From the NCBI RefSeq assembly GCF_037042905.1, contig NC_087245.1:22694001-22758000 (forward strand): a stretch of 64,000 bases of DNA, written 5' to 3'. Source of the stretch: Lytechinus pictus. Its lineage: Eukaryota. A program made the translations under genes and the position numbers. Below are positions 42,700 through 42,882 of this stretch, piece by piece; position 1 is the first letter of the stretch, and the number at the start of each line of letters is the position of its first letter. The notes under the pieces are model-generated. The model was not told the origin of the DNA. It saw only the letters and a program-made list of their open reading frames with translations, and searched no databases.

Positions 42700-42882
42700 A
42701 CTGGGCGTTGTGGCGTGCGCCTGTAACCCAAGCTGTTGGGAAGTTACAAATTGATGCAGAGGTTCGAAGTTCGAGCCCTGGTCACGTCTTTCGGATGGTG
42801 ACGTTAAAAGTCGGTCCCAGACGTAAATAATCATATCTGATTGATACACGTCTGACAAAAACTCAAACACACACACACACAC
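42700..42882 (+). mobile_element. SINE with 7SL(Alu-domain)-like head and (CA)n tail, copy 1
   Basis: CTGGGCGTTGTGGCGTGCGCCTGTAA.CCAAGCTGTTGGGA head, B-box GTTCGAGCC, body GTCTTTCGGATGGTGACGTTAAA; empty sites at 52869/70 and 53565/66. Confidence 0.75.

Follow-up and report, generated by a model that had tools for sequence, protein, structure and literature searches.

A young chimeric SINE with a 7SL RNA-derived head in the sea urchin Lytechinus pictus

Background

The window analysed here, a stretch of 64,000 nt of Lytechinus pictus DNA (NC_087245.1, positions 22,694,001 to 22,758,000), contains a 183-bp insert of which the first nucleotides resemble the 5′ end of 7SL RNA, and a first-pass annotation proposed that it represents an independently evolved SINE composed of 7SL, tRNA-like and Deu parts. 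The locus therefore raises the question of whether a 7SL-headed SINE exists in an invertebrate, and if so, which part of 7SL RNA it has taken and how it may be mobilised. Reviews published up to February 2026 describe 7SL SINEs, in the excerpts available, as extremely rare elements that occur only in a few vertebrates and that all go back to the same central deletion. Excerpts of Kojima 2024 (PMC10886601) list only primates, rodents and hagfishes as carriers, with the hagfish SINE1-1_EBu presented in the available part of Kojima 2020 (PMC7245038) as the first evident SINE1 outside Euarchontoglires, and the corresponding part of Kosushkin et al. 2026 (PMC13023118) adds the shrew mole and stresses the shared central deletion. 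In the mostly open-access literature to 2026, we found no 7SL-headed SINE in an invertebrate. Repbase includes L. variegatus elements according to an excerpt of PMC5786205, and a related family may thus sit there under another label.

Results

The insert is present in four copies on the forward strand of the window (42700-42882, 45237-45419, 47768-47950 and 50292-50474), each 183 bp in length and ending in (CA)n. Its boundaries, which had been placed correctly in the first-pass annotation, are fixed by two empty sites on the same strand, at 52864-52875 (junction between 52869 and 52870, in a paralogous arm of the host repeat) and at 53560-53571 (junction between 53565 and 53566), and alignment of these sites with the four copies showed that the target bases were not duplicated. 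The SINE inserted into one of the long inverted arms of a foldback (MITE-like) element that belongs to an array of 2.5-kb tandem units at 41240-55732; the arms of this element are 240-340 bp long and are accompanied by nested pieces. The four copies are spaced by 2537, 2531 and 2524 bp in units that are 98.9-99.1% identical, and since these tandem units hold all four of them, the window contains one insertion which was duplicated later, with copies 2, 3 and 4 being tandem duplicates of the copy-1 insertion. Four separate insertions are ruled out by the 2.5-kb unit. Copy 1 carries the substitution T28C, which weakens the second hairpin of the Alu domain. The open reading frames crossing the SINE are short chance frames on the minus strand and were rejected as candidates.

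Other features of the window include at least two carboxylesterase/cholinesterase-like genes in tandem, with exons on the forward strand (6800-9400 and 13450-20400, recognised by eye in the translations), and a single long ORF on the reverse strand (31193-32134) with weak Pfam matches to syncollin and ETX/MTX2 (aerolysin-type), which has relatives only in a congener and two further records. One ORF of the window shows 100% identity to a protein assigned to Lytechinus pictus, and its relative in L. variegatus is 40% identical. A near-perfect hairpin of ~125 nt at 2684-2810, with weak matches to miRNA families, is probably a small MITE, and a broken reverse transcriptase (RT) fragment on the reverse strand (23005-23926, Pfam RVT_1) looks like that of a CR1/L2-type LINE.

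The host genome (812 Mb, 368 contigs) was searched with exact motifs from the SINE, which gave at least 1,258 matches for a 17-nt tail motif, at least 865 for a 31-nt tail motif and at least 624 for a 30-nt head motif, with 0 matches for each reversed control. A DNA search with the SINE gave at least 1,483 candidates, and scores were computed for 40 of these; the motif and candidate counts are all lower bounds. Copies are found on many contigs with unrelated flanks, which is the dispersal that the first-pass annotation had set as a check. The arrangement of the element is fixed, as the body and tail were identically arranged in 30/30 head-anchored loci, and the head was present in 27 of 30 tail-anchored loci, the other three being 5′-truncated at about nt 85-88. 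Sampling of 40 evenly spaced 10-kb stretches (400 kb) yielded no intact copy and one weak fragment, and this sparse yield is consistent with a copy number in the low thousands at most. The mean identity of 29 tail-anchored copies to a reference copy was 98.4% over aligned columns, in a sample that is skewed to young copies because these were picked by exact match. The second loop of the head and a 7-nt duplication at the B box distinguish the subfamilies. We conclude that this is a real and young family of chimeric, 7SL-headed SINEs in a sea urchin.

With a length of 183 bp and at least 1,258 motif matches, the element falls within the definition of a SINE (<1 kb, interspersed, ≥100 copies). 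The excerpted SINEBase criterion is ≥60% identity to tRNA, 5S or 7SL over ≥60 nt (PMC3531059), whereas the 7SL overlap found here is 45 nt at 93%, followed by a separate tRNA-like segment of ~30 nt; the composite head is ~80 nt long, with no one RNA spanning 60 nt of it. Head-to-tail SINE dimers and a tetramer were observed at L028, L039-L044 and L097, and one dimer has identical flanks on several contigs, and thus rides inside a larger repeat. Three further copies (L188, L178 and L106) are interrupted at the same CCTGG (nt 77-81) by different inverted-repeat elements, which suggests MITEs with a CCWGG target.

Target site duplications (TSDs) were scored in 126 copies, a non-random set of 133 copies minus 7 located in dimers or simple repeats. 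A TSD of ≥6 bp was present in 20 of the 126 copies (mean 0.74 and maximum 4 in shuffled pairs) and one of ≥10 bp in six (0.0 on average in shuffled pairs), while 87/126 copies had ≤3 bp. The description of the element as lacking TSDs thus holds for the window insertion, but not for the family. Among the truncated copies, 7/22 begin at nt 83-88, where a predicted hairpin (-15 kcal/mol, z -2.9) has its 3′ foot, and this clustering suggests that reverse transcriptase may pause there. The family as a whole displays empty sites, TSDs, 5′ truncation and a repeat tail as marks of retrotransposition.

The 7SL-derived head covers nt 1-45 (42700-42744 on the forward strand in copy 1) and corresponds to the 5′ Alu domain, with the 7SL A-box region, two hairpins, the TGTAA turn and a closing helix of nt 1-3 with nt 43-45. 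When the whole window was scanned against 4,227 Rfam families, Metazoa_SRP matched all four SINE copies, with 34.6 bits (E 2.8e-5) for copies 2-4 and 29.6 bits (E 7.7e-4) for copy 1, each under the gathering score of 70; at E≤1, the same scan gave no match to a tRNA or 5S family at the four copies. A search of the genome with the SRP model gave seven full-length 7SL genes among 25 scored candidates, and the head aligns with the 7SL paralogue L037 in 43/46 columns and with the commoner 7SL type in 33/35; it has 30 bases that are identical to those of a host 7SL gene. The alignment scores with host 7SL were 64-76, compared to a shuffle maximum of 36, whereas the best score against 30 distinct host tRNA-Lys sequences was 14, which is also the shuffle mean. 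Both the SRP model, albeit below its gathering cut-off, and the 7SL genes of the host itself thus confirm the suspected 7SL origin, and tRNA-Lys does not match the head better.

No match to the remainder of the seven host 7SL genes was found in nt 46-165 on either strand (shuffle p 0.17-0.96), and the presence of the 3′ strand or the S domain of 7SL in this part was hence rejected. As the homology stops at nt 45, only the 5′ Alu domain was captured; the origin assigned to the 5′ end in the first-pass annotation stands, but its extent of ~47 nt is to be shortened accordingly. The TGTAA turn (nt 23-27) and the GGC (nt 13-15) and GCT (nt 33-35) loops are located as described there. Both hairpins are present in the window, but the TCCAA/TTGG pairing given for the second one is peculiar to this subfamily, with its loop type found in 5 of 80 intact heads. 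The family-wide pairing of the second stem is TCC/GGA, conserved in 79/80 on each side (in a count restricted to the 80 intact heads), and the second loop comes in 23 types among these heads with the stem being kept.

Copy 3 can form all 12 pairs of the Alu-type fold and the loop-loop pairs G14-C34 and C15-G33, of which we assume the identity from the human structure, while the base for a third loop-loop pair is kept in only 5/80 heads. The closing helix contains U3-A43 in both the SINE and L037, versus C3-G42 in the other six 7SL genes, and this shared compensatory pair indicates that an L037-like gene was either the donor or was later converted by the SINE. The Alu-type fold of the SINE is 3 kcal/mol weaker than that of the common 7SL (-8.2 versus -11.2 kcal/mol). 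Compared with shuffled sequences, no better folding was found for the whole SINE (z -0.98) or the head alone (z -0.22), and likewise for the host 7SL head (z 0.03). There was no extra conservation of the head among copies (mismatch 1.9% in the head and 2.1% in the body), as expected under neutral decay. The folding and mismatch values speak against a function of the head. The A-box region of the SINE is identical to that of host 7SL. At three 7SL genes arranged in tandem (L031, L035 and L036, at G000:C10:7.91-7.92 Mb), a SINE copy is located ~34 bp upstream, between the positions of the conserved upstream motif and the TATA-like region of SINE-free 7SL genes, where it could alter 7SL transcription or give rise to a read-through RNA.

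The head is followed by a linker and a tRNA-like T-arm (42745-42780, forward strand), which contains a canonical B box, GTTCGAGCC, at 42769-42777 (nt 70-78), the position at which it was originally noted. The 7-nt duplication in the window subfamily creates a second, partial B box. In a comparison that covered tRNA-Lys genes only, nt 52-80 matched the anticodon-to-T-arm part of host tRNA-Lys with a score of 30, which was reached in 0/200 shuffles. The genome also contains a large tandem array of tRNA-Lys genes with a spacing of ~470 bp (G000:C4:9.70-9.74 Mb).

The subsequent segment (42781-42818, forward strand) is the likely 5′ part of a Deu/Nin-type body, and the Deu/Nin-like motif reported in the first-pass annotation does match printed Deu alignments by eye. 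In the available part of the supplement of the hagfish paper, nt 82-119 agree with the Deu start of AmnSINE1 in 21/24 columns (hand count), and they similarly match the bivalve rows of the Deu alignment printed in the excerpted PMC4824008. With a Deu-type segment of the host, 31/40 columns agreed with a score of 38.5 (shuffle mean 18.5, maximum 42 in 3,000), and nhmmer with that segment as query did not pick up the SINE family. The alignments of this short stretch of ~38 nt make it likely that nt 82-119 represent the start of a Deu domain. A tRNA-headed sister element with the same body and tail was absent from the 30 inspected of 61 variant-motif matches, which were all this SINE family, its truncated copies or worn relatives, and from the 400 kb sampled at even intervals; L113, a divergent copy, is the only one of its kind.

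The 3′ part of the SINE consists of a LINE-related tail (42818-42867, forward strand), made up of a bulged stem-loop (42818-42854) and an A-rich spacer, and the (CA)n terminal repeat (42868-42882, forward strand). In the predicted fold of the stem-loop (z -2.8), stems of 7 bp and 6 bp flank a 3x4 internal loop. The tail was compared with 100 loci, all of RNase H-bearing LINEs, and matched the very 3′ end of LINE family B in 38/47 columns with a score of 60.5, whereas the next LINE family scored 42 and 320 random 2.5-kb windows scored ≤38.5. Six substitutions separate the stem-loops of the SINE and family B: four of them make up two compensatory pairs, a fifth creates a G-U pair and the sixth falls in the internal loop. 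The two tails have the same predicted fold. Family B comprises L315, L316 and L408, the last being the longest (~6.1 kb; 96.8% identical to L411) with an open frame of 1,125 aa that contains the endonuclease, RT and first part of RNase H. From the order of the endonuclease, RT and RNase H domains, we take the partner LINE to belong to the I group (I/Nimb-type). The family B elements end in (CAA)n, unlike the (CA)n of the SINE, and an ORF2 complete through RNase H was found in 0 of 20 copies.

Family A was the first candidate for the partner, with an intact ORF2 of 1,269 aa, copies that are 99.5-99.9% identical and the same tail fold, but its tail match is weaker (score 36, with 16/5,000 shuffles as high) and it was displaced by the better match of family B. 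A genome-wide search with the tail motif gave 47 matches, comprising only SINE variants, family A and one stray. A LINE sharing the tail of the SINE was thus found, and the partner is likely to be the RNase H-bearing, putatively I-group family B, rather than the CR1/L2-type LINE initially envisaged, with the caveat that the score of 60.5 was obtained among 100 RNase H LINE loci. Some SINE copies (L290, L373 and L401) are situated inside RNase H LINE copies or immediately after them, in two cases at the LINE terminal repeat, which reflects either a target preference or co-integration. In addition, an intact young family of RNase H LINEs (L283, L303 and L323-L326; ORF2 of 1,233 aa, 99% identity between copies) has in its 3′ UTR, right after the stop codon, a SINE-like T-arm with a CORE-like and a Deu-like segment, and is a LINE with a SINE body fixed in it.

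Discussion

The earlier proposal of an independent chimeric 7SL/tRNA-like/Deu SINE in an invertebrate is supported by a head that matches host 7SL, by dispersal and by the Deu-like motif. We think it probable that the 5′ Alu domain of 7SL gives the SINE RNA access to ribosomes via SRP9/14, and that the RT of an I-group LINE copies this RNA via the 3′ stem-loop. Pol III would transcribe the SINE from a composite promoter, in which the A box is that of 7SL and the B box is of tRNA type, and since there is no run of four T inside the SINE, termination would take place in the flank. The 5′ domain of the RNA would then bind SRP9/14, with which the predicted fold of the head is compatible, and set the RNA on ribosomes that are making the LINE ORF2 protein. 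This protein may bind the tail hairpin and prime at the nick, where short homology to (CA)n would help, with target-primed reverse transcription presumably carried out by the family B LINE. The family may have been born when a template switch joined the 5′ end of 7SL to a tRNA/Deu SINE, in place of the front half of the tRNA head, and a parallel is found in the 5S and partial-tRNA heads of vertebrate Deu SINEs (PMC4824008, in part).

The size of the captured piece is of interest in view of a study in HeLa cells (PMC11760393), the available parts of which report that a 46-nt 5′ Alu domain equals the 86-nt domain in SRP9/14 binding and retains 86% of full Alu retrotransposition, with the 3′ part of the Alu domain being needed only for its B box. 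A rather unlikely alternative is that the 7SL piece contributes only a Pol III A box and a 5′ end, with the LINE recruited via the 3′ stem-loop alone and the Alu fold merely carried along in a young family. The tail indeed has its own LINE-type recognition hairpin, most heads have lost the third loop-loop pair, the Alu fold is weaker than that of 7SL, and the 5S/partial-tRNA heads of Deu SINEs likewise come from template switching (excerpts of PMC4824008). However, an A box requires only about nt 4-14, whereas the captured piece stops at the boundary of the 5′ Alu domain at nt 45, and the closing helix and second stem have stayed intact while the loop varies.

The identity of the mobilising LINE allows for a second, considerably less likely alternative, in which the 7SL-headed SINE is moved by family A or by an unsampled family with a (CA)n end. 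Family A has the intact copies and the common tail fold that go with such a role, with its tail score of 36, while family B combines the lack of a complete ORF2 in 20 copies with a different terminal repeat, and the 100 loci compared were all RNase H LINEs. Against this, the match of family B is far better (60.5 versus 36-42) and includes compensatory changes, and the 47 genome-wide tail-motif matches led only to SINE variants, family A and one stray. Finally, one-off chimeric 7SL retrocopies, or a tRNA SINE with a chance likeness to 7SL, might be read from the Rfam score under the gathering cut-off and the 45-nt overlap below the 60 nt of SINEBase, but this highly improbable explanation is largely refuted by the uniform head/body junction in 30/30 loci and the diagnostic subfamilies, next to the 30 bases identical to a host 7SL gene and the failure of the sampled tRNAs to match.

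Access to ribosomes through SRP9/14, combined with copying by an I-group LINE, remains our preferred explanation. Weighing against it are the folding of head and whole SINE at the level of shuffled sequences, the Alu fold weaker than that of 7SL, the rarity of the third loop-loop pair, the ordinary conservation of the head, the (CAA)n end and incomplete ORF2 of the family B copies, the TSDs of ≤3 bp in 87/126 copies, the negative nhmmer result and the failure to find a tRNA-headed sister among the loci inspected. We lean, with some reserve, towards viewing the family as the first invertebrate 7SL SINE and a fourth independent origin of such elements, as a natural minimal 46-nt Alu domain joined to a tRNA B box, and as a sign that SRP9/14-ribosome docking helps even SINEs that depend on a sequence-specific I-group LINE. 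It extends 7SL-derived SINEs to echinoderms by another route, and the piece kept is that defined experimentally as the minimal SRP9/14-binding, jump-promoting domain. The SINE separates the promoter and ribosome-docking roles proposed for the 7SL head, because the B box comes from elsewhere and LINE recognition is probably by a tail hairpin, not by poly(A). By analogy with Alu we infer that the head may work in an Alu-like way, and the long-standing question of what makes the Alu domain so suitable for a SINE can be addressed independently of L1, in a sea urchin that is kept in the laboratory.

Comparison with known SINEs

In comparison with described SINE1 elements, the sea-urchin SINE has no 3′ Alu strand and no 7SL B box, and is distinguished by a (CA)n end and a stem-loop that it shares with an RNase H LINE. 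The closest in design is SINE1-1_EBu of the hagfish Eptatretus burgeri, which in the available sections of PMC7245038 likewise has an independently acquired 7SL head, a chimeric structure, a LINE-derived tail and a microsatellite end, and is also young with low thousands of copies. However, SINE1-1_EBu keeps nt 1-96 and the 3′ end of 7SL, and hence the whole Alu domain and the 7SL B box, versus only nt 1-45 in the sea-urchin SINE. It is described there with a bipartite RTE tail, TSDs of ~17 bp and no tRNA or Deu part, whereas the sea-urchin SINE combines a B box of tRNA type with a putative Deu fragment and a tail of I-group type, and is mostly without TSDs. Alu, FLAM and B1, together with Urop of the shrew mole, share with our element the 5′ Alu domain with both hairpins, the UGUAR turn and the complementary loops, but they are characterised in the excerpts of PMC13023118 by a central deletion of ~183 nt, the retention of both 7SL ends, poly(A) and L1, none of which is seen in the sea-urchin SINE.

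The constructs SA46/AY46 of Moldovan et al. (PMC11760393, in part) contain the same 7SL piece with the same domain boundary. These are laboratory constructs which use an external promoter, a poly(A) tail and human L1, and which cannot jump again without a B box, whereas the sea-urchin SINE has a tRNA-like one. The Deu/Nin SINEs AmnSINE1, EbuSINE1, BivaMD-SINE1 and SINE2-3_SP have the Deu start after a partial tRNA, as the sea-urchin SINE probably does too, and the vertebrate Deu SINEs with a 5S rRNA plus partial-tRNA head have the same head-swap design; the Deu part differs in length, the putative one here being ~38 nt, compared to 70 bp in the shortest example printed in the available part of PMC4824008. 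The sea-urchin SINEs listed in the excerpted PMC3747384 are tRNA-headed and have CR1/L2 partners, whereas the SINE described here is headed by 7SL.
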